Source: Cloacimonetes bacterium UBA6081 (GTDB lineage Bacteria; Cloacimonadota; Cloacimonadia; Cloacimonadales; Cloacimonadaceae). From it: a stretch of 64,000 nt of DNA. Location: contig DIXL01000034.1 in NCBI GenBank assembly GCA_002428685.1, positions 49-64,048 of the forward strand, in the 5' to 3' direction. The notes below the pieces were generated by a model. The model was not told the origin of the DNA. It saw nothing but the letters and a program-made list of their open reading frames with translations, and ran no database searches. Position numbers and translations under genes: made by a program. Position 1 is the first letter of the stretch; each line of letters opens with the position of its first letter. Of the stretch, positions 1-46,527 are shown piece after piece.

Positions 1-62
1 ACTTGCATGTGTTAGGAACGCCGCCAGCGTTCGTCCTGAGCCAGGATCAAACTCTCCATCAT
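1..62 (-). rRNA. rrs: 16S rRNA gene, 5' end only (the rest lies left of the window)
   Basis: Reverse complement of 1-55 reads AGAGTTTGATCCTGGCTCAGGACGAACGCTGGCGGCGTTCCTAACACATGCAAGT, the universal 27F site and first helices of bacterial 16S rRNA. The exact 5' end (about 55-62) cannot be fixed. Confidence 0.93.
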
Positions 63-439: not shown

Positions 440-1078
440 ATGATCGTATCAGCTTGTGTGTTTGTAATCATAGTCACAGCGTTGTTTGTTTACCAAAGCT
501 TTACTGCGCCTTACAGCACCAAAGCTGCAGAGACTGACAAGATTGATGTCAGTATAGAACCCTTACAAACAGCTAAAATTGATACCATTATTCCAGTGCT
601 CATGCTTTCTGGCTCCAAATATAGCATCACTCCCAAAGCTAAGTATCAAATATCGGGTATGCTTGTAAGCAAACGTCATTATTTGAGAGGGTATATGAAA
701 CATTTATCCCCTTACGATTATGCCCTTATCTGGGGTGATGTTCCGCAATATCTGGAGTTTTTGAAATTTGACCAGATTGTTCGTTTTTGTTTGTTCAAAT
801 ATAAACCTGGGTTGCCAATTAGCGTAGAATATGTAGGTAATCACCTAAGCAATAACCATTTGATCCCAGCCACAAAGAACATTAGAAAAGCTTTGGGCAA
901 GCCCAAAAGGAAAGACCTTATTACTCTTCACGGTTATCTGGTAAAGGTTTATGGTCAGGATAAAAAGGGCAGAACAACTACTTGGAACAGCAGTATGAAT
1001 CGCACGGATGATGGCAACGGCGCGTGCGAAATCATCTACGTAACTCGGCTGAGAATTAATGACGACATCTTTGAATAG
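440..1078 (+). CDS. hypothetical membrane-anchored protein
   Basis: The ORF track gives 428..1078 (TTG start). The ATG at 440 gives an N-terminal hydrophobic helix (IVSACVFVIIVTALFVY) followed by a soluble domain. No family recognised. Confidence 0.6.
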   Translation: MIVSACVFVIIVTALFVYQSFTAPYSTKAAETDKIDVSIEPLQTAKIDTIIPVLMLSGSKYSITPKAKYQISGMLVSKRHYLRGYMKHLSPYDYALIWGDVPQYLEFLKFDQIVRFCLFKYKPGLPISVEYVGNHLSNNHLIPATKNIRKALGKPKRKDLITLHGYLVKVYGQDKKGRTTTWNSSMNRTDDGNGACEIIYVTRLRINDDIFE

Positions 1079-1253
1079 ATTTTACAAATCAGCCAGCATA
1101 GATTCATCTTCTTTAGATTATTTTTACTCACTATTTATTTGAATTAAAATGATGTTACTTCTCAAAAACTGTTACTTATTGGCCTCTGTGCTAATTCATG
1201 TTTCAACCTTGCTTGAATTTTCCTGTAATTGCCCTGTTATTAGCTACAAATTG

Positions 1254-1282
1254 GACAATAACAAGACAATAACATGACAATT
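1254..1282 (+). promoter_or_regulatory. three direct repeats GACAATAACA / GACAATAACA / GACAATT with 11-bp period
   Basis: Repeats start at 1254, 1265 and 1276. They lie about 50-75 bp upstream of a TTGACA (1331-1336) and 120 bp upstream of the ATG at 1401. The one-helical-turn spacing resembles a transcription-factor site. Confidence 0.3.
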
Positions 1283-1400
1283 CGACCCGGCAAGATATCT
1301 GCCCATAGCAAGAGACCAGAGAAAATGGACTTGACATAAACCGCCATTTTTCTGCCCTTGCAGAATGTGTAAAATACAATACGAAAATGGAGTTTATCCG

Positions 1401-2669
1401 ATGAGATTCAGGCTGCTTTTACTACTGATAGTCATTGCCATGATAAATAGTTCCTGCAGCAGTAGCGGCAGACTTTACCGCAAGGCTAACAAACACTATC
1501 AGAAAGGCTTATATGAGGTTTCTGTTCAAGAGGCAGCAAACTCTCTGCGTCAAAAACCCGATAACGCCAAAGCTCAGGATTTGTTAGTGCAGGCCTGGGA
1601 AACAGCGGTAAAAAACCGTGAAGACAGAGTAAGCAACCTGGCGCAAAGTAGCAATCCCAATAAATGGGAACTGATTTTGGAAGAATATACTGCGCTTCAG
1701 GCTTTGGGTAGCAGTTTACAAACCTTACCCACTTTGGTAAACCCCTATTCCGGTTACAGAGTGCTGATCAATATCCCAGACTTAAGCGAAAAGATAAACA
1801 ACAGTCGTGAAAACGCAGCCGAAAACCGCTACCAGTCCGGCATTCGCTATGCAAAAATCTCCAACGATATCGACACACAAAAAAAAGCAGCCCTCGAGTT
1901 TAAGGCAGCTTTGAACTTTATCCCAGATTACAAAGACGCCTCCTTGCGCTATGACCAGTGCCGCAAACAAGCCATCAAGCGTATCGCTATCAGCCCCTTT
2001 GAAGATAAAAGCAACAGCCGCAGCCGCTTTGGAGCTATAGCAGATTTACTCACAGACCACATCATCAGCCAGATAATTTCCTACACAGCCAATAGCGATT
2101 TTATAGAAGTTATAGCCCGTTCGCAGATGGATGCAGTGCTGGCAGAACAACAGCTCAGTGCTTCGGGTTTGGTTAGCGAATCCAGCACGGTTCGGCTTGG
2201 TCAAATCTTAGGTGCCCACGAAATCCTCACCGGGCGCATTTTGCAGGTTAGCGTTACTCCCTCACGCACCGTCAGCGTTACCCAGGAAGCCCGTGCTAAG
2301 GTTGTAATAGGCAAAGAAGACTACATAGATGAAGAAGGTAAAACCCGTCAAAGAGACGTCCATGGCGAAGTTAGCTGTCAATATCGTAAATACACCAAAT
2401 CTGCAGGAGTAAACGTATCCGGCTCTTTTAGCATTATAGACGTGGAAACGGGCAAAATTAAGCTACAGGAAAGCCTGGAGGTCAAAAACCCCTGGGCAGA
2501 CAGCTGGTGCCGTAAAATCTCTGGCGATGACCGCGCTTTAAGCCACAGCCTGAAAACCCAGATTGCCAAAGCAGAGCCCTTTCCACCTGAAGATAGTGAG
2601 ATGGTAATGGACGCTTTGAGGCAGCTTGGTTCTGCAGTTGTATCCAAAACCCGCAATTATCTGAATTAA
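1401..2669 (+). CDS. CsgG/LpoB-like (TolB-N-like fold) lipoprotein with helical N-terminal region
   Basis: The ATG at 1401 follows GGAG and gives signal peptide MRFRLLLLLIVIAMINSSC (lipobox Cys). The segment KRIAISPFEDKSN...FGAIADLLTDHIISQI...IARSQMDAVLAEQQLSASGLVSE...LGQILGAHEILTGRI matches the CsgG/HfaB/LpoB-type pattern. Confidence 0.6.
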   Translation: MRFRLLLLLIVIAMINSSCSSSGRLYRKANKHYQKGLYEVSVQEAANSLRQKPDNAKAQDLLVQAWETAVKNREDRVSNLAQSSNPNKWELILEEYTALQALGSSLQTLPTLVNPYSGYRVLINIPDLSEKINNSRENAAENRYQSGIRYAKISNDIDTQKKAALEFKAALNFIPDYKDASLRYDQCRKQAIKRIAISPFEDKSNSRSRFGAIADLLTDHIISQIISYTANSDFIEVIARSQMDAVLAEQQLSASGLVSESSTVRLGQILGAHEILTGRILQVSVTPSRTVSVTQEARAKVVIGKEDYIDEEGKTRQRDVHGEVSCQYRKYTKSAGVNVSGSFSIIDVETGKIKLQESLEVKNPWADSWCRKISGDDRALSHSLKTQIAKAEPFPPEDSEMVMDALRQLGSAVVSKTRNYLN

Positions 2670-2672
2670 ACC

Positions 2673-4001
2673 ATGAAGAATATCATATATCTTGCGCTTT
2701 TACTAATCGTTAGCTCTTGTGCGCTTGGAAACAATGAGCCCGCCTGGGTGCAACAAAATCCCACCGACAACTTATACTACAATGCCGTGGTTAGGATAAA
2801 CAAAAAAGCTCCCAACTACGTTGATTTGGCCAGAGATAATGCTTTGAAAGACATCTCCATGCAGATTAGCGTGGTTATTGATTCCAAAGTTGCTTTAACC
2901 GAAGGCGAGATAAACGGTGTTCCCTCTGCCGAGATTATCAACCAAATCCGCACCTCCAGCCGTAACAAACTGGCCAACGTCCAACTGGCAGGCAGCTATC
3001 AAACCGATAAGGACTACTGGGCATATTACCGCCTGTCCAAAAGCGAATACCATCACTGGAGGCAAGAACAGCGCAATCTGGCCATGCAACAAGCCATCCC
3101 TTTGCTTCAGGAGTTCGACGCTGCAACCAGCGATATCGCCTCTGGAATAACCGCCCTGCTAAAGGCTATGGAGCTGACAATTGATTTTGCAGATATGGAT
3201 TTGACAACCAGTTATAAAGGACAAAACATCAATCTTTACAACGAACTCTTAGCCAGGCTGAATCGCATGCCGGAGAGCATAGAACTACACTACTCGGTAA
3301 AAGAGCTAACCCTGGTGGCAAAACAGCGAAACCGCCACATCGTTCCTGTAAGTGTTGCCTATCGCAGTGTTCCCTGTAAAAGCTTTCCGCTATCCTTCAA
3401 TTTTCGTGGGGGTGCCGGCGACATTGTGCAGAAAACATTTACGGACAGCGAGGCAAAAGCGGATTTGATTATCCGCAGAATTACTGATTTTGCTGACCCT
3501 CAGTTCATAGAAATGAAAGCAGATAAAGATTATTGGCTCACCCGCATCGAAAGCCCGGTGATAAAGCACATGTTGGAACTATTACAATTCCAGCCTGCTA
3601 CGTTAAAGCTGAATGTCAGCCGGCCAAAGGCATTTATAGACTATAGTTTTGATAACACATCCGGAAGCTCATACCGTGATTTATTGACCAAGAAGCTACA
3701 AGACCTTGACCTGGAAGTGGTGGCAGACAGTGCTAAAAGCGACTATATCTTTAAAGTAATAATCATTAGCAAGGATGGCGATTTCGTTTCCCGTTTGAAC
3801 CTGTTCTCCGCTTCTGCAGATGCCTTTGTGGATTTAAGACAGACCAAAGGCTACAAAAGCCTCTATAATACGAACTTAACCGGCACAAAAAGCACCGGCT
3901 CCAGTAGAGACGCTGCCATCAAAATGAGTGAATTGAATGCCATTGCGGAAGTATGTGATAAGCTGCTGTATATGCTTGTGGAACAGCACATTATGCAATA
4001 A
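2673..4001 (+). CDS. LPP20-family-like lipoprotein
   Basis: Signal peptide and lipobox MKNIIYLALLLIVSSC are followed by PAWVQQNPTDNLYYNAV, typical of LPP20-type lipoproteins. The gene starts 4 nt after the preceding gene, so it is probably co-transcribed. Confidence 0.5.
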   Translation: MKNIIYLALLLIVSSCALGNNEPAWVQQNPTDNLYYNAVVRINKKAPNYVDLARDNALKDISMQISVVIDSKVALTEGEINGVPSAEIINQIRTSSRNKLANVQLAGSYQTDKDYWAYYRLSKSEYHHWRQEQRNLAMQQAIPLLQEFDAATSDIASGITALLKAMELTIDFADMDLTTSYKGQNINLYNELLARLNRMPESIELHYSVKELTLVAKQRNRHIVPVSVAYRSVPCKSFPLSFNFRGGAGDIVQKTFTDSEAKADLIIRRITDFADPQFIEMKADKDYWLTRIESPVIKHMLELLQFQPATLKLNVSRPKAFIDYSFDNTSGSSYRDLLTKKLQDLDLEVVADSAKSDYIFKVIIISKDGDFVSRLNLFSASADAFVDLRQTKGYKSLYNTNLTGTKSTGSSRDAAIKMSELNAIAEVCDKLLYMLVEQHIMQ

Positions 4002-4027: not shown

Positions 4028-4181
4028 GTGGAAAAGTGGAAAGGTGAAAACCGTTTTGATCTGACACCGTTCTAAGTGTGGAGTCGTTTCAGCCCTTACC
4101 TTCAACAAAGTTGTATCCCAATTTCGAGGCTGAAAGGACTACACATGTCTGAGCTGACACCTGTTACCTGAAACCTGACAC
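4028..4181. repeat. composite intergenic repeat: word block GTGGAAAAGTGGAAAGGTGAAAACC, family-A palindromic element (4076-4145) and CTGACACC/GAAACC words
   Basis: Arms GTGTGGAGTCGTTTCAGCC (4076-4094) and GGCTGAAAGGACTACACA (4128-4145) are imperfect reverse complements (15/17 pairs). The same element occurs at 11628-11698 and 33397-33465. The 4028-4052 block recurs at 50032-55. Confidence 0.85.
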
Positions 4182-5084
4182 CTATTTTAATTCCAACCAT
4201 GAACCAGCTTTCATTTTCCCGCCCTTATACTTTTTGCTATTCTGTTTGTATTCCCTCAATTCCAGTTCCTTCCAATCCCAAGCAAGGTTTTCTCCCAGCT
4301 CTGTTATGTCCTTTAAGGCAGTTTTGCGAATAAAGGCAATAGGCCCGCATTGCAGATAAATTATCTCACCCATTTGGTCAAAGGCTTTCAGTTTGTTTGC
4401 TGCCGATGATTCTGCGGTAAGGTGAAGCTTATTATCCTGCTTTGCGATAATAGAACAACCCACCAAATCATCCGGATAGCGCAACCTTATACTCTGCATC
4501 TGTTTATCCACCAAAAGCACCTCTGCAGCTTCCTGGACAAAAGCTTCACGCATAAGTGTCTCCATGGAAACGCTACGATCACCCATATTCCCTTGCATTT
4601 TAAGCGTGTCAAACCAATTGTCCCAAACATAAATCTGTCGGGGTGCTAACATCGGCTTAAAATCTTCCAGTTGGATGCTCTTTAAATTCCGCGGCCATTT
4701 ACTTTCGCGAAAACTGGGGACTATAATTCTGATATCGTAGTCCGAAAGTTGCCTTCCGTCTTGTTTCAAGGCCAGATATGCGGTATTGGATTTTAGTTCA
4801 AGACGGCTGAAATTCAGCACATAGCCATCGTTCGTCGCCAAACGCATACTGTGCCATTTATCACCTGCCAGGCTTCTCAACCAGGGCAGCAATTCTATGC
4901 CTTGCCATTTTTCTTTCAATTGTGTTCCATCTTTGTCTCGCACCGTTTCAAACCCAAGCAGTTTGCTTTGTTGCAATTCACTGGTGTTAAGCCTCCAGCT
5001 ACGCCCATCATGGTGCCTTAGCTCAATTCCGGACAAGCTGCATAGCATAGATAAGAGCGAGATAATCATTACTAATCTGCGCAT
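4182..5084 (-). CDS. secreted hypothetical protein
   Basis: N-terminal signal-like MRRLVMIISLLSMLCSLSG. The internal pattern WQGIELLPWL...MRLATNDGYVLNF...DIRIIVP...W weakly recalls the sulfite-oxidase/YedY-type fold, which is unverified. Confidence 0.55.
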   Translation of the reverse strand: MRRLVMIISLLSMLCSLSGIELRHHDGRSWRLNTSELQQSKLLGFETVRDKDGTQLKEKWQGIELLPWLRSLAGDKWHSMRLATNDGYVLNFSRLELKSNTAYLALKQDGRQLSDYDIRIIVPSFRESKWPRNLKSIQLEDFKPMLAPRQIYVWDNWFDTLKMQGNMGDRSVSMETLMREAFVQEAAEVLLVDKQMQSIRLRYPDDLVGCSIIAKQDNKLHLTAESSAANKLKAFDQMGEIIYLQCGPIAFIRKTALKDITELGENLAWDWKELELREYKQNSKKYKGGKMKAGSWLELK

Positions 5085-5329
5085 TTTATTTCCTTTTTAG
5101 TTTATGATCCCAATGTTTCTGACATACATAATTTTGTCAATTAGGCCGAAAATTATTGACATAAACTCCCTCTTGTTTTTGTTTGTGCATAGGCCGAGTG
5201 AAAGTTCCTAAACATTAGCATGGGCTTATCACCGATAGGGTATAGCGGGAAACGGCTATGCCTCCCTTTGGAAAGGCTTTGACGGAAATCTTATCCGCGA
5301 TAGCCTCCTGCTTTTCATGGAGGATAAAA

Positions 5330-6156: not shown

Positions 6157-6298
6157 ATTGTCGTTCCCGCGGAGGCGGGAATCCAGCTCAGTAAAAGCTC
6201 TGAAAGAGCGGTAGAAAGGTAAGTATATGCTTCGACATTTTGTGTCATCCCTGCGGGATTATAAAGGGCTGGATTCCCGCCTCCGCGGGAACGACAAT
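6157..6298. repeat. perfect 31-bp inverted repeat flanking an 80-nt spacer, with nested small hairpins
   Basis: ATTGTCGTTCCCGCGGAGGCGGGAATCCAGC (6157-6187) is the exact reverse complement of 6268-6298. Each arm contains TCCCGC-GGAG-GCGGGA. The spacer contains GCTCT-GAA-AGAGC (6197-6209) and ATCCC-TGC-GGGAT (6247-6259). Confidence 0.9.
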
Positions 6299-9500: not shown

Positions 9501-11801
9501 TTAATGCGCCAACAGGGCTTCCATAATGGTTGTAGCTGCTTCGGGAAGCTTTGTGCCCGGGCCAAAGATGGCTGAAGCTCCATGCTGATACAAAAATTCA
9601 TAGTCCTGGGCTGGGATTACTCCACCCACAATAACCATGATGTCTTCCCTGCCGTGCTTTTTCAGCTCGTCCATTAGCTGTGGCAACAGGGTTTTGTGTC
9701 CGGCCGCCAAAGAACTCATGCCAATGATGTGGACATCGTTTTCCACAGCCTGACGTGCAGTTTCTTCCGGAGTTTGGAACAAAGGACCCATATCCACATC
9801 AAAACCCATGTCTGCATAGGCTGTGGCCACCACTTTGGCACCACGGTCATGCCCGTCCTGCCCCATTTTGGCAATTAGGATACGGGGACGGCGGCCTTCC
9901 TGTTCGGCAAATTTATCGGTTAAAGCCCGAACCTTTTCAATATCATCCATTTTGGCATACTCACTGCTATATATATTGTTTATCATTCTAATCGTGGCCT
10001 GATGGCGACCATAAACCTTTTCCAGGGCGTCCGAAATTTCTCCCAGAGAAGCACGTTTGCGAGCAGCATCAATTGCCAGTTCCAACAAATTTCCTTCCTT
10101 GGTTTCGGCACATTTGGTCAAAGCTGCCAAACTGGTGGTTACCTCTGTGTTATTACGCTCTTTGCGCAGTTTTGCCAAACGGGCTAATTGCGAGGTTCGG
10201 ACTGCGGTGTTGTCAACTTCCAGGATGTCCATGGCAGCTTCTGTATCAGGACGATATTTGTTGACGCCAACAATTACGTCTGCACCGGAATCAATCTTGG
10301 CCTGACGCCTGGCAGAGGCTTCTTCTATGCGCATTTTGGGAAGGCCGGTTTCGATGGCTTTGGCCATGCCACCCAGCTTTTCCACTTCCGTGATGTGATC
10401 CCAGGCTCTATGCATCAAGGCATCTGTTAAAGATTCCACATAATACGAGCCTGCCCAAGGGTCAATAACTTTACAAACGCCTGTTTCGTGTTGCAAATAA
10501 AGCTGTGTGTTGCGGGCAATGCGGGCACTGAAATCTGTGGGGAGGGCAATGGCCTCATCCAAAGAATTTGTATGTAGCGATTGGGTATGCCCCATTGTAG
10601 CGGCCAGGGCTTCGATTGTGGTTCTGGTGATGTTATTATAGGGGTCTTGTTCGGTAAGGCTCCAGCCGGAAGTTTGGCTATGAGTTCTGAGAGCCATGGA
10701 TTTGGGGTTTTTGGGGTTGAATCCTTTAATAATCTTTGCCCATAACACTCTGGCACCACGCAGCTTGGCAATTTCCATGAAATAGTTCATGCCTTCTGCC
10801 CAGAAAAATGACAGACGGGGAGCAAAGACATCAATATCTATGCCTGCATTTATGCCGGTGCGCACATATTCCAATCCATCGGCCAGGGTGTAGGCCATTT
10901 CCAAATCGGCAGTAGCACCTGCTTCGTGCATGTGATAACCGGAGATGCTGATGCTATTGAATTTTGGCATTTTCCGGCTGGTGTAACTAAAGATATCTGC
11001 AATAATTTGCATGGAGGGCAAGGGCGGATAGATGTAAGTATTGCGAACCATGTATTCTTTTAGAATATCGTTCTGGATGGTACCATTCAGAGCTTCGGGG
11101 CGGACGCCTTGCTCTTCGGCTGCCACAATATAAAATGCCATTATTGGTAACACCGCACCGTTCATGGTCATGGAAACACTCATCTGATCCAGAGGAATGT
11201 GATCGAAAAGGATCTTCATATCCAGGATGGAATCCACTGCCACACCGGCTTTGCCAACATCACCAACCACTCTTGGGTGATCGGAATCGTAACCGCGATG
11301 GGTGGCTAAATCGAAAGCTATGGATAAGCCCTTCTGCCCCATCGCCAGATTTCGGCGATAAAAAGCATTGCTTTCTTCGGCCGTGGAAAAACCTGCGTAT
11401 TGGCGAATCGTCCAGGGTCTTTGTATAAACATGGAAGGATAGGGACCGCGTAAAAAAGGTGGCAAACCGGAAAGATAATCCAGATGCTCCAGTTTTAGCA
11501 AGTCTTGCTTTGTATATAAAGCTTTAACGTCTATCTGCTCATTGGTTTTCCAGAGGCGTGAGTCTGGAGTCGATGTCGTCTTGTCAAGATTTAAATCCAT
11601 CTTAGATATAGAGGGGACAGAATTGTCGTGTGTAGTCCTTTCAGCCTTTGAATTGGGAGTTAAGTTTGAACCTGGAGAAGGCTGAAACGACTCCACACTT
11701 TGCGACTCCACACTTTGCGACTCCACACTTTGCGACTCCACACTTGGTGCCTTTACACGGGTTTTAAACTGCGGATTCAGAGTCATAAAATCAGGATTCA
11801 T
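9501..11801 (-). CDS. mutB: methylmalonyl-CoA mutase large (catalytic, B12-binding) subunit with a repeat-derived N-terminal extension
   Basis: Conserved mutase sequence runs from about [16 protein letters not shown] to the C-terminal B12-binding domain ([18 protein letters not shown]). The ATG at 11801 overlaps the mutA stop (ATGA) and follows GGGGGTGA. An alternative ATG at 11600 (MDLNLDK) has no SD. Confidence 0.88.
11628..11698 (-). repeat. family-A palindromic element copy (inverted orientation) inside the 5' end of the mutB ORF
   Basis: Plus strand reads GTGTGTAGTCCTTTCAGCC...GGCTGAAACGACTCCACAC, the reverse complement of the 4076-4145 and 33397-33465 elements. In the mutB frame it translates as [24 protein letters not shown]. 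Confidence 0.85.
11688..11747 (-). repeat. 4 x 15-bp tandem repeat (CGACTCCACACTTTG) encoding (VESQS)n
   Basis: Units lie at 11688, 11703, 11718 and 11733; the last has one substitution. The unit duplicates the outer arm of the adjacent palindromic element. Confidence 0.9.
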
Positions 11802-24489: not shown

Positions 24490-24757
24490 ATAATTATAAG
24501 TTAAGCTCAATTTCACCTGTCTAATCACTGCCATAACATTTTCCTTAACTCCTTAGCCCAACTTTACCACAGACAGTAGTTATATACTTGCCCTACAAAT
24601 ACATACATTTTTATGGGGGACTACATTTTCCCATTTTTTCTGGGTTTTATACGAGGGTTTGGGTTTAGGTTTAATGCATTATAAATCAATAAATGCGATG
24701 GATCTGCCTTGGAATTGATTCGCTTTGAATACATCTTTTTGTGAGTTGTAAGGCCAG

Positions 24758-25347
24758 TTACTGTAACTCTTCTATGATTTGATAATGTGCTTCTGCTCGT
24801 AGGCCGGTTTGGTGGTAGATTGGGCGAAAAGCAAGCTCATGTTTCAAACTTCTAAATGCAGATTCAATCCTCTTGAGCATCATATAAGTTTCCCATATTT
24901 TGCGCTCATTCCATTTTAAGAGGTTGGTTCTAAGCCAGTAGGTTCCCGAAAAACGTAAATCCTCTTCCTGTTGCTTAATTTTATGAAAATCAATGCTTAC
25001 TGCCTTGCCATTGCTTTCTTTTACGTCTATGTGATAAAAATGGCTAACAAAGGGATAGCACTCTCGCAATCTTCCTATTCTTTCCTGTATCTTCCCATCA
25101 GACTTGTTGCTATATCTCTTTGTAAGAGTGGGGATAATGTTGCTCAAGTCATCCTCAAACTTTTTGCAGAAGCTGTCCTGGATGGCTCTCTCTTTGAATT
25201 CCATTTTCTTACTGTGGCAAAAGAGCAATACCTCATTATCAAGCTTGTATATCTTCGCTGTTACAAGGTTTTCTTTGTCCTTATAACCTCAATCATGCCT
25301 TCATCACTTTTGCTGTTTTTGCTTGCAAAATCGCTAAAATTTGTCAT
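24758..25347 (-). pseudogene. internal fragment of an IS4/IS1634-type DDE transposase, frameshifted
   Basis: FRSLKHELAFRPIYHQTGLRAEAH matches the conserved ...LK..L..RP.YH motif. The frame breaks near the A-run at about 25270 (MTNFSD...VIRTKK continues as ENLVTAKIYKLDNEVLLFCHS). N-terminal region, C-terminal region and terminal repeats are all missing. Confidence 0.7.
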
Positions 25348-25367
25348 TTTCGCTTTGGCAGTGGTAA

Positions 25368-25526
25368 AGTTGGGTGAAGGGGCAGTTGGTAACCACACAC
25401 AACATGACGGCGCAAACCAAACATGTCAGCATCCCCTTTGCCGGCTACGCTTCCGGAGTATATCTGGCACGTTTGCATACCAAAACCGGCTTTTCCAAAA
25501 CCATACGTTTTAATTTGCTTAAATAG
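25368..25526 (+). pseudogene. orphan 3' remnant of a gene encoding a T9SS C-terminal sorting domain
   Basis: The frame opening at 25368 reads SWVKGQLVTTHNMTAQTKHVSIPFAGYASGVYLARLHTKTGFSKTIRFNLLK*. This is comparable to the tails at 40680-40941 and 26196-26400. It abuts the transposase fragment and has no upstream body. Confidence 0.7.
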
Positions 25527-25626
25527 ACTGCTGGATAATTAGAGCATATAAAGTTGGAAGGTCAGGTAAGCATCCGTAATCTCTATTCTGCAAAAAGTTC
25601 CGTATCACTCCCTTATAAGCATTCCT

Positions 25627-25680
25627 ATATCATTGCCATATCATTCCCAATATTATTGACATTGATACGGGAATGATATG
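25627..25680. repeat. 12-bp perfect inverted repeat CATATCATTCCC / GGGAATGATATG around a TTGACA, plus adjacent direct half-repeat
   Basis: Arms at 25637-25648 and 25669-25680, with TTGACA at 25656-25661 in the spacer. ATATCATTGCC (25627-37) is directly repeated as ATATCATTCCC. Confidence 0.8.
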
Positions 25681-25980
25681 GGAATTCATGCAAGGAACAA
25701 CCTCGTTTGACCTAAAAAGAGCGAGGACCTTTGATTTGCAGTTGCAACGCTCACTTCAAGGCTTTTTGCTCATTATACAATCACAAATCCGCTCTTTTTG
25801 GGTTAAACGGAGTAGTAGTATCAGTTTTCGAAACAAGGATTTTAGGATTAAAGGGGAAAAAGGATTAGTAGAATTTCTGCTTTGCATTAATCATCCTGTT
25901 TTCACATGATCCACCGCACACTAAAAATTCAACGCCTATAATCCTGAAATCCTCGCAAGTAAACCCAGATGTGCACTTCC

Positions 25981-26156
25981 GTTTTAATGCAAAACGAGCG
26001 TTATGTTACCGTATAAATTGGGGTAAGCAGATAAACTTCAGTTGCAGTTATGAACAGGGAGTCGCTCTCGTTTAACATCAAAACTGTCTTCAGTTGCAGA
26101 CATGAATCAAGGAGCCGCTCTCGTTTTGCATCAAAACTACCTTCGGTTGTTGCCCT
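25981..26156. repeat. 2.3 copies of a 52-53-bp tandem repeat plus an upstream inverted partial copy
   Basis: Units start at 26036, 26088 and 26141 (CTTCAGTTGCAG..ATGAA..GGAG.CGCTCTCGTTT..CATCAAAACT). GTTTTAATGCAAAACGAGCG (25981-26000) is the reverse complement of the unit's 3' part. Confidence 0.8.
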
Positions 26157-26195
26157 TTGCCCAAAAATGCTTATAAACTGTCTATTTTGCTATCA

Positions 26196-26942
26196 TTACT
26201 TTCTGAGTAGAGCTCTTGCCTTGTTGGTTGGAAGGCGCACAAGGTAAACACCATTTGGTAAATCAGGAACAATTAGCTCCACTACCCCTTTTTGCCAGTC
26301 GGTATCCCTTAGTTCGCTCTTCATTACTAACTGTCCCTTCATGTTGTAGATGCAGAAATTATCCGGGGATGGAAGGCTGTTCTCAGATTTGATTATAGAT
26401 ATCCCCAACCTTCCATGCTGCACGGGATTGGGATAAATATTCAAGTTCCACCCCTCACTCTGCACTGCTGGAATAACCTCATCCTCCACGCCCACTGCCG
26501 AATCCTGCAACAGAGTATTGCCGGAATAGATGTAAACCTTGCCGTTTGTAAGGGACGGTTGGCCTTCAAAATACCACGGGGCAGATATGGCAAGATCGCA
26601 AAGTGCGTCCCCAATGAAATCCCCCGTGGCCTTAGCCCAGCCAAAATTACAGTATTCGTAGTTCGAAGGTGGCCAGAGAAAGAGGTCAATATCGCCGTTT
26701 AGGTAGCTATTGCTTGTTTCCACCCAGATACCCACCTGTCCGCTATGTCCATTTATAACGGTATCGGAACCCACAATATCGTCTTTGCCGTCTCCATTCA
26801 GGTCTCAGTAAACAAGCGGATTTCCGCCATTGTGCTCCAGAGTTTGCCACTCATGAAGATGGGAGTTGTAATTCAATCTGAGGTTATGCGATGCGTGGGA
26901 AAGACTTTTGCAATTCAACAAGAATAAATTCTTCAAAATGTA
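26196..26942 (-). pseudogene. 5'-truncated FG-GAP-repeat protein with T9SS C-terminal domain and an in-frame TGA
   Basis: The C-terminus IYPNPVQ...IYNMKGQLV...LPNGVYLVRL is a T9SS tail. DLNGDGKDDIVGS and GDFIGDALCDLAIS are FG-GAP repeats. An in-frame TGA lies at 26807-26805, and the frame is open up to 26942 with no signal peptide or start. Confidence 0.7.
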
Positions 26943-27425
26943 TCAAGAAGAAGTTATGGTTCCGATTGGAGATTGGGCTCAGAAAAGGCTTTCAAGTCTC
27001 AGTGAAACTGATAAAACAAGAGATATATCCAAGGTTGGTTGCGGAATTGGGGTAATAGCAGACAGATATCCAAAATGAAAGATGACTTTAATAAAGCGAC
27101 TCGCATTCTCCGAACAAGCAGCAACCAAGTAGCACTTATTGCTATAAACGGATGCTGTTATGGTAAAGACGATTTACCAGATAAGGGGAGTTATTTCAAA
27201 TATTGTGGACAGTGCTTCTGGGAATTTCTTTCAGGAGATTCTGAATTATACACTAAGATCATTGTTCCTTTGGGGCATAAAGCTAAAGAAAAGAATGATA
27301 ATTTTATGACTGAATACTCTAAAGTACTGAATAACTTCACGGCACAATTCATTGCTGATTTCTGTGAAGACGGAGAAATTAACTGGAAGAAGCTTCTCGA
27401 ATATAATTCTGGGAAAAAGACATGA
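26938..27425 (+). pseudogene. frameshifted, 5'-truncated restriction-endonuclease-like fragment (recalled as PmeII-like; unverified)
   Basis: Frame a (26938-27078) reads ...PIGDWAQ...TRDISKVG. Frame b (27039-27425) reads NWGNSRQISKMKDDF...NGCCYGKDD...YFKYCGQCFWEFLSGDSELYTKIIVPLGH...INWKKLLEYNSG. The join requires a shift near 27040. The region looks A+T rich, and no methyltransferase is nearby. Confidence 0.4.
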
Positions 27426-27516
27426 CAGATAGATTTGCGATTAATGTAAGTCCTTGATATATATACACTTGATTAATAGTATTTTTGTAACCCTTTAGTT
27501 TGTTCAGAAAAGCTTA

Positions 27517-32799: not shown

Positions 32800-33609
32800 A
32801 TGATACATGAAATGTTAAAAGATAAAAAGGTCATTCTGGCTTCTGCCTCGCCACGCCGGGCAGAGCTTTTTAAGTTATTAGGAATTAATGCCAAAATAAT
32901 CCCTGCTGATGTGGCCGAACCGTTAACAGATGAACTACCTCCAATTCAAGCAATTCACCATGCCTCAAACAAGGCTTCGTTAATCTCGGAAAAGTATGGT
33001 GCTAGTAACCTCGTTGTTGCCGCGGATACGGTAGTGGCCATCGATAAACATATTTTAGGCAAGCCAGATAGCGTAGCACAGGCCTGTCAGTATTTAAAAT
33101 TGCTTTCTGGGCGCAAGCACAGCGTTTTCACCGGACTATGTCTGATGCTTGAGGGTAAAACACTTAGTTCCTACGAACACACCTTTGTTCAGTTTGCCGC
33201 ATTAAGCGAAACCGAGATAGAGGCTTACATTGCCACCCAAGAACCCATGGACAAGGCCGGTGCTTATGGCATCCAAGGTTACGGAGCACAGTTCATCGTA
33301 TCAGTTCAAGGCTGCTATTTTAATGTGATGGGGTTACCGATCCGCTTGTTTTACAATACTTTGCAAGCATTGTTAGGGATACAGAATTCAACAGATGTGG
33401 AGTCGTTTCAGCCTTACCCAGGCTCAAATATGTCTCCCATTTTCAAGGCTGAAAGGACTACACACGACACCCAGTCAACCCAGCAATCGCCGTTTATAGT
33501 CCATTCCGCCGTGAAGACTGAGCCTTATTTAAGCCAGAACAAGGCAGAATCGACTCCAAACTTTCAATCATCCCCTCAGCTTCCGACCCTGCCCAAGGAT
33601 ACATTATGA
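32800..33609 (+). CDS. maf: Maf-like nucleoside-triphosphate pyrophosphatase with about 75-aa repeat-derived C-terminal extension
   Basis: ILASASPRR, ADTVV and KAGAYGIQG motifs. Canonical Maf would end near ...RLFYNTLQALL (about 33375). The ORF continues through two palindromic elements to a TGA that overlaps the next gene's ATG (ATGA at 33606-33609). Confidence 0.85.
   Translation: MIHEMLKDKKVILASASPRRAELFKLLGINAKIIPADVAEPLTDELPPIQAIHHASNKASLISEKYGASNLVVAADTVVAIDKHILGKPDSVAQACQYLKLLSGRKHSVFTGLCLMLEGKTLSSYEHTFVQFAALSETEIEAYIATQEPMDKAGAYGIQGYGAQFIVSVQGCYFNVMGLPIRLFYNTLQALLGIQNSTDVESFQPYPGSNMSPIFKAERTTHDTQSTQQSPFIVHSAVKTEPYLSQNKAESTPNFQSSPQLPTLPKDTL
33397..33465 (+). repeat. family-A palindromic element copy inside the 3' end of the maf ORF
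   Basis: GTGGAGTCGTTTCAGCC (33397-33413) ... GGCTGAAAGGACTACACAC (33447-33465), translated as [24 protein letters not shown]. Confidence 0.85.
33511..33561 (-). repeat. degenerate, shorter family-A element in opposite orientation
   Basis: GTGAAGACTGAGCC (33511-24) ... GGCAGAATCGACTCCAAAC (33543-61) resembles the reverse-complement form of the element (GTGTAGTCCTTTCAGCC...GGCTGAAACGACTCCAC). Confidence 0.5.
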
Positions 33610-35060
33610 CCCTATACACCAACGCTTATCTCTGGATAAATGATGCTTGGACTGCCCAACCTGCTGCACTCCTTGTAGATAATGGCATCATCACAGACAT
33701 CCTTTATCACAATCTCCCAACCAATGTTGCAAGTATAAATCTCTATGGCGCATACTGTTATCCAGGTTTTACCGACACCCACACTCATAGTTTTGAGGGC
33801 GGGTTATACAGCCTAGGAGTGGATTTATCCGTGGTAAGAACCATCCCTGAGCTACTTGCCCTGCTTGGCGCAAATAAACACAACTCTGCCGACACCCTCT
33901 TTGCCTGGCAACTGGATGAAGCCCAACTGGCCGAAAAACGCTTTCCTACGATAGCAGAACTTGATTCTGTGATAAACCTCCGCCCGCTTGTTTTGCGTCG
34001 CATAGACGGCCATTCCTGCATGTTGAACACCGCTGCCCGAGCCTTGGTGCCTGGCTTAACCACCAAAGACGAAATCCTCCGTGGAACCGAAAACGACCAC
34101 GCTGTGCATTATTTCCACAAACAGATACAGCCGGATACCATCTTACAAGCTTACCAAGCCGCTGCCAAAATCGCCTTACAAGGTGGCTTTACGGGCATTC
34201 ACACTATGATTGGCGACGCAGATAACAGCATTGGCCATTACAGCCTTATCCGCGACAACCTAAGCAAGTTCCCCATCTCATACACCATTTATCCACAGTC
34301 TTTTAACCTAAAGGCCGCTTTGGACGCAGGTGCTTCAAGGATAGGCGGTTGCATCCTGGCTGATGGTTCAATTGGCTCTATGACTGCTGCACTCAATTCT
34401 CCCTACGAAAACAGCGACAGCCGAGGAGTTTTATACCAAAGCGACCAGTTCTGGGCTGATTTTATCACCCAAGCCGCCAAACACAAGTTTCAAGTGGCGG
34501 TGCACTGCATCGGCGACCGTGCCATCAAACAGATAAATGACGTTTATAAGTCCCTTGATAGCACTCCTTTACTGCGCCATCAGTTGATTCATTGCGAACT
34601 GACAGATAACACCCTGATAGAGGAAATTTATGCTTCGGGAGCTGTGCCCGTGATGCAGCCCAATTTTGATTTATTGTGGGGTGGTGATGAGGGTTTTTAC
34701 GCTCGTAAACTTGGTGGACAGCGCAGCCGGATCATGAACCGCTTTGCCAGCCTAATGAACCATAGCATCAGGGTTTGCGGTGGTTCAGATTGGTATATTA
34801 CAGCTCTGAATGCACCCATGTCCATCATCGCTGCCATGAATCATCACAACCCTGCGGAACGGCTAACCCATGCCCAAGCGATAGCTATATACACCAAAAA
34901 CGCCGCCTGGTTAAGCCACGAGGAAAACTCGCGCGGGGCTATCAAACCAGGCTGTCAGGCCGATTTTACAATTGTAAACCAACCTCTTGACAACTTTGGC
35001 ACTCAACCTATAATCCAAAAGGTTATCTGTAAAGGAGTTATCCGCTATGAACAAGTTTGA
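33606..35060 (+). CDS. metal-dependent amidohydrolase (YtcJ-like, amidohydrolase-3 type)
   Basis: PGFTDTHTHSFEGG (HxH metal site), AVHCIGDRA and GSDW motifs. Confidence 0.7.
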   Translation: MTLYTNAYLWINDAWTAQPAALLVDNGIITDILYHNLPTNVASINLYGAYCYPGFTDTHTHSFEGGLYSLGVDLSVVRTIPELLALLGANKHNSADTLFAWQLDEAQLAEKRFPTIAELDSVINLRPLVLRRIDGHSCMLNTAARALVPGLTTKDEILRGTENDHAVHYFHKQIQPDTILQAYQAAAKIALQGGFTGIHTMIGDADNSIGHYSLIRDNLSKFPISYTIYPQSFNLKAALDAGASRIGGCILADGSIGSMTAALNSPYENSDSRGVLYQSDQFWADFITQAAKHKFQVAVHCIGDRAIKQINDVYKSLDSTPLLRHQLIHCELTDNTLIEEIYASGAVPVMQPNFDLLWGGDEGFYARKLGGQRSRIMNRFASLMNHSIRVCGGSDWYITALNAPMSIIAAMNHHNPAERLTHAQAIAIYTKNAAWLSHEENSRGAIKPGCQADFTIVNQPLDNFGTQPIIQKVICKGVIRYEQV

Positions 35061-46451: not shown

Positions 46452-46527
46452 GCGGGCATAGCTCAGTTGGTAGAGCATTAGCTTCCCAAGCTGAGGGTCG
46501 CGGGTTCGAGTCCCGTTGCCCGCTCCA
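46452..46527 (+). tRNA. tRNA-Gly (anticodon CCC), CCA encoded
   Basis: Cloverleaf by hand: acceptor GCGGGCA/TGCCCGC, D arm GCTC-AGTTGGTA-GAGC, anticodon stem TTAGC/GCTGA with loop TTCCCAA, T arm GCGGG-TTCGAGT-CCCGT. The CTTCCCAAG context matches E. coli glyU. Confidence 0.9.

Follow-up and report, generated by a model that had tools for sequence, protein, structure and literature searches.

A lineage-specific palindromic repeat as the probable origin of a 77-residue C-terminal tail on a Maf protein of the Cloacimonadota

The window analyzed here, a continuous stretch of 64,000 nucleotides, contains a maf open reading frame whose stop codon overlaps the start codon of a gene encoding an amidohydrolase. 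Between the end of the conserved Maf domain and this overlap, the frame runs through a structured repeat of which further copies are present in the window. The features referred to below are as follows.

32800 to 33609, plus strand: maf open reading frame, 269 aa
32800 to 33375, plus strand: Maf domain proper, aa 1 to 192, ending in the conserved ...FYNTLQALL helix (Pfam, alignment, AlphaFold2)
33376 to 33606, plus strand: C-terminal tail of Maf, aa 193 to 269, 77 aa (homologue alignment, AlphaFold2)
33395 to 33468, plus strand: hairpin H1, with arms at 33397 to 33413 (GTGGAGTCGTTTCAGCC) and 33447 to 33463 and a loop of 33 nt (profile E = 1.6e-23)
33469 to 33489, plus strand: spacer between H1 and H2, varying in sequence and length among copies (comparison of copies)
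33490 to 33563, minus strand: hairpin H2, a diverged inverted copy of H1 (nhmmer E = 1.3e-5; inverted repeats I1 and I2)
33564 to 33574, plus strand: probable 3' extension of the element (AACTTTCAATCATCCCCT), proposed from a weak likeness, by eye, to the 3' end of the RlmN copy (AACTTACACCCTACCCCT)
33595 to 33609, plus strand: junction with AAGGA at 33595 to 33599 (Shine-Dalgarno-like), ATG at 33606 to 33608 and TGA at 33607 to 33609 (sequence)
33606 to 35060, plus strand: Amidohydro_3 gene, 484 aa (Pfam PF07969, 1.5e-57)
4074 to 4149, plus strand: intergenic copy consisting of H1 only, between convergent genes (profile search)
11557 to 11747, minus strand: copy in frame within mutB, with H1 at 11625 to 11700 and an array of 3.9 units of 15 nt at 11688 to 11745

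The first 192 residues of the window protein constitute a complete conserved domain of the Maf/YhdE nucleoside-triphosphate pyrophosphatase family. Pfam PF02545 matches aa 10 to 190 (1.6e-55, 188 bits) over profile positions 1 to 186 of 187, all of the invariant Maf columns are retained in the alignment with homologues, and the block-mean pLDDT given by AlphaFold2 exceeds 85 across most of aa 1 to 192. The 77-aa tail, in contrast, has no counterpart in the family. The other Maf proteins in the alignment, which are the nearest homologues, end 0 to 8 residues past the conserved ...FY..L..LL helix, and those of the closest relatives are 192 to 204 aa long (192 to 200 aa in related Cloacimonadota) and lack the tail; a preliminary description of this DNA had likewise placed the normal end of Maf near 33375. 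Its recommended comparison of maf orthologues and junctions confirmed the tail as an addition, since among the best 120 homologues only P0002, from the same strain, shares the tail and the remainder align with 63 to 75% of the query, corresponding to the Maf domain only. An exact-sequence look-up of the window Maf protein returned no record.

The tail (GIQNSTD-VESFQP...AERTTH...STPNFQ...PKDTL) is hydrophilic, with a GRAVY value of -0.86 and P, S, T, Q, and N making up 53% of its residues; for inserts of the element in general, GRAVY ranges from -0.6 to -1.2 and the same residues account for about half. The preliminary description had also proposed structure prediction as a check on disorder, and in the AlphaFold2 model pLDDT falls below 50 for most of aa 201 to 254 (53 residues in total), where no secondary structure is predicted. 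The model suggests that the tail is probably disordered, with the qualification that the tail has no alignment depth and that low pLDDT is expected there anyway, which makes it weak evidence for disorder. Tryptic peptides predicted from the tail sequence are TTHDTQSTQQSPFIVHSAVK, TEPYLSQNK, and AESTPNFQSSPQLPTLPK. Taken singly, the open frame at the maf locus is only mildly improbable, as 3.8% of shuffled sequences lack an in-frame stop over 74 codons.

The element encoding the tail is a double hairpin of roughly 165 to 210 nt. The preliminary description had attributed a tail of about 75 aa to two copies of a palindromic element, and both copies are present, with the length corrected to 77 aa; it had delimited the degenerate inverted copy to 33511-33561, which is too short on the 5' side, as the profile places H2 at 33490-33563. 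Full copies found in the window by profile lie at 4074-4149 (+), 11625-11700 (-), and 33395-33468 (+), in addition to this diverged inverted one, and the 17-nt arm GTGGAGTCGTTTCAGCC occurs seven times in the window with up to three mismatches, against an expectation of 0.07. Including contigs fetched from other assemblies (among them L083 to L087, L091, and L092), copies were found at 12 loci in all. In the copies compared, H1 has an arm-to-arm spacing of 50 nt and the same two stem mismatches (GTGGAGTCG versus GTGTAGTCC). All 17 pairs of the H1 stem are conserved over 11 copies, one of them with a compensatory change, and over 7 copies of H2 compensatory double changes were found in 5 of 17 pairs, the inner stem varying yet staying paired. 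The predicted DNA fold of H1 has an energy of -15.9 kcal/mol (z = -4.2), and the whole 226-nt insert folds at -61.5 kcal/mol (z = -4.9). Searches of the element for an outward promoter or terminator found none.

The element is often accompanied by tandem arrays of its GAGTC-containing arms. Arrays adjoin it at 11688-11745 in the window, at 7136-7295 in L001 (an independent assembly of the maf locus), at 10022-10134 in L085, at 1632-1699 in L087, and at 285-371 in L092; the period is 15 nt at mutB, 24 nt at maf (in L001), at dinG/murB, and in L087, and 51 nt in L092. Most of the periods recorded are multiples of three (15, 24, 24, 24, 45, 48, 51, 21, and 15 nt), with exceptions of 40, 7, and 8 nt, and a period of 111 nt was deduced from a 37-aa repeat in P0245. 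This prevalence may be due to selection in translated DNA, or to ascertainment through searches based on open reading frames. On the 3' side of copies consisting of H1 only (window 4154-4183 and L086 10180-10260), there are short tandem repeats containing GACACCTGT, with periods of 7 nt and 40 nt, and the 3' region of the element therefore also appears prone to local amplification. At 10282-10560 of L084, compared with L085, the whole element, together with the final 24 nt of the dinG-like gene upstream of it, forms a 279-nt tandem duplication, which is present in the contig from JGI 3300002498 and absent from an ENA contig that is otherwise 99.8 to 100% identical.

Only one frame of the element is regularly open. 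Across six composites, frame +1 (VESFQP...AERTTH...STPN/D) contained no stop in five and a single stop in the sixth, and the other five frames had one to five stops each in every copy. Frame +1 remains open through H2 in the copies of L091 and L092. It is open in the intergenic composites of L087 and L092 as well, which shows that openness belongs to the element and not to the maf locus. In most stand-alone copies stops appear soon after H1.

This frame is fused to a set of unrelated proteins. At the C terminus of Maf the fusion is present in both the window and L001. In MurB, also a C-terminal fusion, MurB_C stops at aa 308 of 416 and the open reading frame overlaps the next gene by 11 nt. 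The fusions in MutB and RlmN are internal: in MutB the element follows 18 ancestral N-terminal codons, and in RlmN (P0246) it lies between ...AAKELA and RITNLVFMGMGEP, inside the radical-SAM domain and beyond the Cys-rich motif visible in P0246. The mobile-element primase carries it in the linker between BT4734-like_N and PriCT_2. The sites thus include C termini (Maf, MurB), a variable N-terminal linker (MutB), and an interdomain linker (primase), with Maf being the only one of these proteins that was modeled. The MutB case had been presented in the preliminary description as a second instance, at mutA/mutB, in which the downstream gene absorbs the element, and the comparison bears this out: relatives of MutB have M(K)NPDF..L.P.F(K/S), then 12 to 14 variable residues, and then WKTNEQ, and the window protein retains MNPDF..NPQFK and WKTNEQ with the element in frame between them. 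The position of the element precisely between coupled genes, to which the same description drew attention, results for the most part from the compactness of a genome in which genes overlap.

Two of the contigs carrying these fusions have features of their own. In L091, at about 2660-2672, the RlmN gene has a 1-nt frameshift downstream of the element (CGCTAATCC, where CGCTATCC would keep the frame), which splits it into calls of 300 aa and 85 aa; this may be a sequencing error or may mark a pseudogene, so the gene may be broken. In L083, the repeat lies in the linker of an 887-aa primase-helicase of a mobile element (825-3488; BT4734-like_N, PriCT_2, DUF3987) on a contig with 49% GC, compared with 44% in the window. 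It is possible that this mobile element is a vehicle for the repeat, or it may simply be co-resident.

The downstream junction was read correctly in the preliminary description: the TGA of maf overlaps the ATG of the amidohydrolase gene by 4 nt (ATGA, 33606-33609), with AAGGA before it. Judged by this overlap of stop and start, the two genes form a pair of the translationally coupled type, in which functional coupling is putative. Their order is the same in relatives (synteny across L001 to L005), and of the four related loci, L002, L003, and L004 have the same 4-nt overlap, and L005 has a gap of 26 nt between the genes. In L002 to L004 Maf is 196 aa long and 69 to 72% identical to the window protein, and the insertion is deduced from comparison with relatives at no higher identity than this. 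At the relatives' loci the N terminus of the amidohydrolase is homologous from the ATG onward, and the homologous junction sequence AGGGAAGTAGAATGA was found in L002 and L003. A profile search of the maf loci of L002 to L005 gave no match to the element. Because L002 to L004 have the overlap without the element, the overlap must be older than the insertion; by this comparison it is ancestral, it may simply have been kept or may have been rebuilt, and the comparison lends no support to the wording that the extension "restores" it.

Two sequences in the window resemble the junction of the relatives, namely AGGGATACAGAAT at 33375-33387 (followed by TCA) and AAGGATACATTATGA at 33595-33609, and it could be that the junction at maf was duplicated. 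Their shared core, GGATACA, flanks the insert at 33377-33383 and 33597-33603, a match that is not significant (p about 0.14). If the junction was duplicated and its upstream stop lost, the ancestral end of maf may have been ...AGGGATACAnnATGA; under a plain in-frame insertion it may have been ...QLPTLPKDTL*.

We consider it probable that the tail arose by the lineage-specific insertion of a short nonautonomous palindromic repeat, similar to Rickettsia palindromic elements (RPE) or to MITE- or REPIN-type repeats, into the last codons of maf, and that it has persisted as a tolerated in-frame fusion. In such a scheme, a selfish repeat made up of H1, a spacer, and H2 in inverted orientation, in many cases with tandem copies of the 5' arm in front of it, would carry exactly one stop-free frame. 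Copies would survive in spacers; within genes, they would survive when they land in the open frame where extra residues are tolerated, as at a terminus, in an interdomain linker, or in a loop. The maf copy would sit upstream of the ancestral Shine-Dalgarno-ATGA junction, so that translation would continue for about 77 additional codons, the ribosomes melting the hairpins on their way, and would then terminate at the TGA overlapping the start of the amidohydrolase gene. The resulting tail, a by-product of the repeat, would be hydrophilic and probably disordered, and it would be tolerated rather than selected; its neutrality and its actual translation are both presumed in this scheme. A stronger version, in which the repeat is adapted to translated DNA and its single open frame, its fixed 33-nt loop, and its arrays, mostly of multiple-of-three period (15, 24, 45, 48, and 51 nt), have been selected, is a possibility that we regard as rather doubtful. 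If it were correct, the repeat could colonize coding sequence and coupled gene junctions without breaking translation, with length-variable in-frame tails of housekeeping proteins within a population as a side effect.

The frame at maf might instead have been kept open by selection, in that ribosomes must cross stable hairpins in order to reach the ATGA and reinitiate, so that coupling was preserved or rebuilt. The ancestral age of the overlap in this operon and the strong folding of the insert are compatible with this, and no promoter-like or terminator-like site was found on the gene strand in or just after the tail. Both C-terminal fusions are open right up to the start of the next gene (with overlaps of 4 nt for Maf and 11 nt for MurB), which hints at more than mere tolerance, while stand-alone copies mostly gain stops soon after H1; the two junction look-alikes would also fit a duplicated junction with a lost upstream stop. 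Selection for translational coupling at maf is thus possible. However, frame +1 is open in the intergenic copies of L087 and L092 and at internal insertions, for which coupling plays no role, no stop occurs in 15% of shuffles of the part after H1, the flanking GGATACA match lacks significance, and in the predicted RNA fold the Shine-Dalgarno sequence and ATG of the amidohydrolase gene are mostly unpaired, so that independent initiation looks possible. On balance we think it unlikely that coupling explains the open frame. It is distinctly unlikely, in our estimation, that the main role of the element is that of a functional RNA or DNA structure carried by operon transcripts, serving in processing, stability, or protein binding, with an incidental open frame. 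Stems held by covariation while loops drift, asymmetric mismatches conserved in all copies, the amplification of GAGTC-containing arms, and an orientation that agrees with the flanking genes at eight of nine loci would all be expected of such a structure, but the orientation of genic copies is forced by the single open frame, and conserved hairpins are equally expected of a mobile element recognized by its transposase. In addition, the element lies within the enzymes RlmN and MutB, in which it is not obvious what a regulatory RNA site would do, and a search with the covariance models of Rfam 15 gave no match at the gathering score and only noise at E > 4 when an E-value threshold was used; a known RNA family was rejected on this basis.

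That the module might be a functional protein segment common to its carriers, such as a linker or an interaction motif, is suggested by the conservation of VESFQP, AERTTH, and STPN/D among copies, yet it is the stem arms that encode these residues, the residues encoded by the loop vary without an excess of third-position changes, the module is also present between genes, its carrier proteins have no functional relationship, and the tail is predicted to be unstructured. Variable sites in the H1 loop number 9, 8, and 10 of 11 at codon positions 1, 2, and 3, respectively, and since variation among copies shows no codon-position bias, the peptide itself does not appear to be under selection, and selection at the peptide level was rejected. 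We regard a shared protein function as very improbable, and we give hardly any weight to the read-through being an assembly or sequencing artifact. Repeats are mishandled by short-read assemblies, and at this locus L001 (ENA ERZ27315036, contig k141_356159), which covers it independently, differs from the window by mismatches at the four positions 33396-33399 and by six additional units of 24 nt (GAGTCGTTTCAGCCTTTAAGTGTG; 144 nt). The Maf call in L001 is 313 aa, and the two assemblies of one strain have maf frames of 269 and 317 codons, respectively. The 160-nt array of L001 is about the longest that a graph of k = 141 (k being taken from the contig name) resolves, and the true number of 24-nt units is therefore uncertain; the difference is possibly a length variant. 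Outside the array, however, the sequences of the two assemblies are identical over 17.3 kb, including 33360-33395 and 33400-33609. A stop near 33375 missed in sequencing, which the preliminary description had named among the findings that would refute its reading, is absent from L001. An error in copy number would leave the frame unchanged, since the period is 24 nt, and contigs of no fewer than four other samples (JGI 3300002498, 3300001567, and 3300037067 and the sample of Ga0172377) show the same in-frame architecture.

The preferred reading, insertion of a nonautonomous repeat, raises the question of how such a repeat moves. The analysis drew on about 130 kb of sequence from this organism, and no transposase was present among the 10 window open reading frames scanned or in the precomputed Pfam annotations of L084 to L087. 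A consistent target-site duplication was rejected over the 12 loci: the best flank matches were nonsignificant at nine of them, including both internal insertions, and no flank duplication was found at the RlmN and primase copies. Coding sequence or a motif internal to the element accounts for the flank matches at mutB and win4078. The mutB insert is flanked by AACCAATGA (p about 0.03), which is not an insertion duplication because the ancestral N terminus of MutB separates the upstream copy from the element, and TAATAA(AA)TATGAA flanks the dinG/murB copy, which is suggestive but AT-rich. The element is presumably mobile. The conserved asymmetric stem mismatches resemble what we take to be single-strand hairpin substrates of Y1 transposases or integrases.

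Among known systems, the closest analogue appears to be the RPE. Rickettsia palindromic elements make in-frame fusions with many unrelated genes (PMC10969869), and as they are described there, after Ogata et al. (2000, Science 290:347), both they and the window element are short palindromic repeats with a stable hairpin, dispersed in one lineage, and both have a conserved open frame that occurs in frame in unrelated housekeeping genes and also in intergenic DNA, with added peptides that appear to be structurally tolerated. The element described here is a dispersed repeat with stable, covarying hairpins, and its one stop-free frame is fused to Maf, MutB, MurB, RlmN, and the primase. Its host, in contrast, belongs to the Cloacimonadota, which are free-living anaerobes, and the likeness drawn here is one of behavior. 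It also differs in being a double hairpin with tandem amplification of one arm (periods of 15, 24, and 51 nt) and in that several copies of the window family lie at gene ends or junctions rather than in gene interiors. By analogy, the element would work like an RPE, and we do not file it as a member of an RPE family.

REPIN/BIME-type repeats and intragenic ERIC-type MITEs seem to be more distant analogues. By definition, REPs lie outside genes, and a single REP already forms a small palindrome; REPINs and BIMEs are REP doublets that are reportedly mobilized by RAYT transposases. The element shares with them inverted pairs of arms of about 20 nt forming a hairpin with conserved mismatches, one of its arms contains GTAG (GTGTAGTCC), copies are frequent between codirectional operon genes, and mosaics of alternating orientation occur. 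Its single arms, unlike REPs, are not palindromic, and at least five copies lie within coding sequence; membership in the REP/REPIN-RAYT group, judged by extragenic location, was rejected on the latter ground. Intragenic ERIC/IRU, BOX, and other MITEs with open reading frames (Delihas 2007, as cited in PMC10969869) are, in the account given there, small nonautonomous palindromic repeats that occasionally are fused in frame with host open reading frames or extend gene ends, as the element does. Classical MITEs have terminal inverted repeats matching an insertion sequence, together with target-site duplications, whereas the element has nonsignificant flanks, lacks a consistent duplication, and has no known parent insertion sequence, so that with respect to target-site duplications it departs from this group.

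The family-wide result is of more interest than the single Maf tail. To our knowledge, Rickettsia provides essentially the only known example of palindromic selfish DNA that has spread in frame among housekeeping genes, and a second, unrelated case in a phylum of free-living anaerobes would show that the phenomenon is no quirk of reduced intracellular genomes. The movement of such repeats and the persistence of a single open frame could be studied in this system, as could the question of whether repeats seed new disordered protein segments. On a practical level, copies of the element inflate or split gene calls in metagenome-assembled genomes of the Cloacimonadota, producing long Maf, MurB, and MutB proteins as well as spurious "hypothetical proteins" (P0121 to P0124).

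The module is rare. Peptide-profile and protein searches recovered it in only 12 of 1.84 billion representative proteins, and a scan of GTDB representative genomes with the 17-nt arm gave 77 single scattered matches, none of them labeled Cloacimonadota. A gapped two-arm pattern was found on one contig of the JGI metagenomes (L083), and a scan of viral contigs gave three single arm matches, all without the element. A search for literature on such repeats in Cloacimonas or the Cloacimonadota found no paper.

A second and unrelated palindromic repeat family (ATTGTCGTTCCCGCGGAGGCGGGAATCCAGCTCAGTAAAA, with arms 90% complementary) is present in the window at 6157-6196 and 6259-6298 and, at 89 to 100% identity, at 6967-7108 in L084, 462-622 in L086, and 1528-1566 in L087; the "RLRGNDNKK" stretch of the spurious open reading frame P0124 derives from it. 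The region from 24500 to 27500 of the window has few long open reading frames, two overlapping open reading frames without a Pfam match, and tandem repeats at 25620-25685 and 26036-26149 (53-nt period). Elsewhere in the window, Rfam models identified a molybdenum/tungsten cofactor riboswitch at 5180-5294 (+), a tRNA at 46452-46524 (+), and the 5' end of a 16S rRNA at 1-62 (-).
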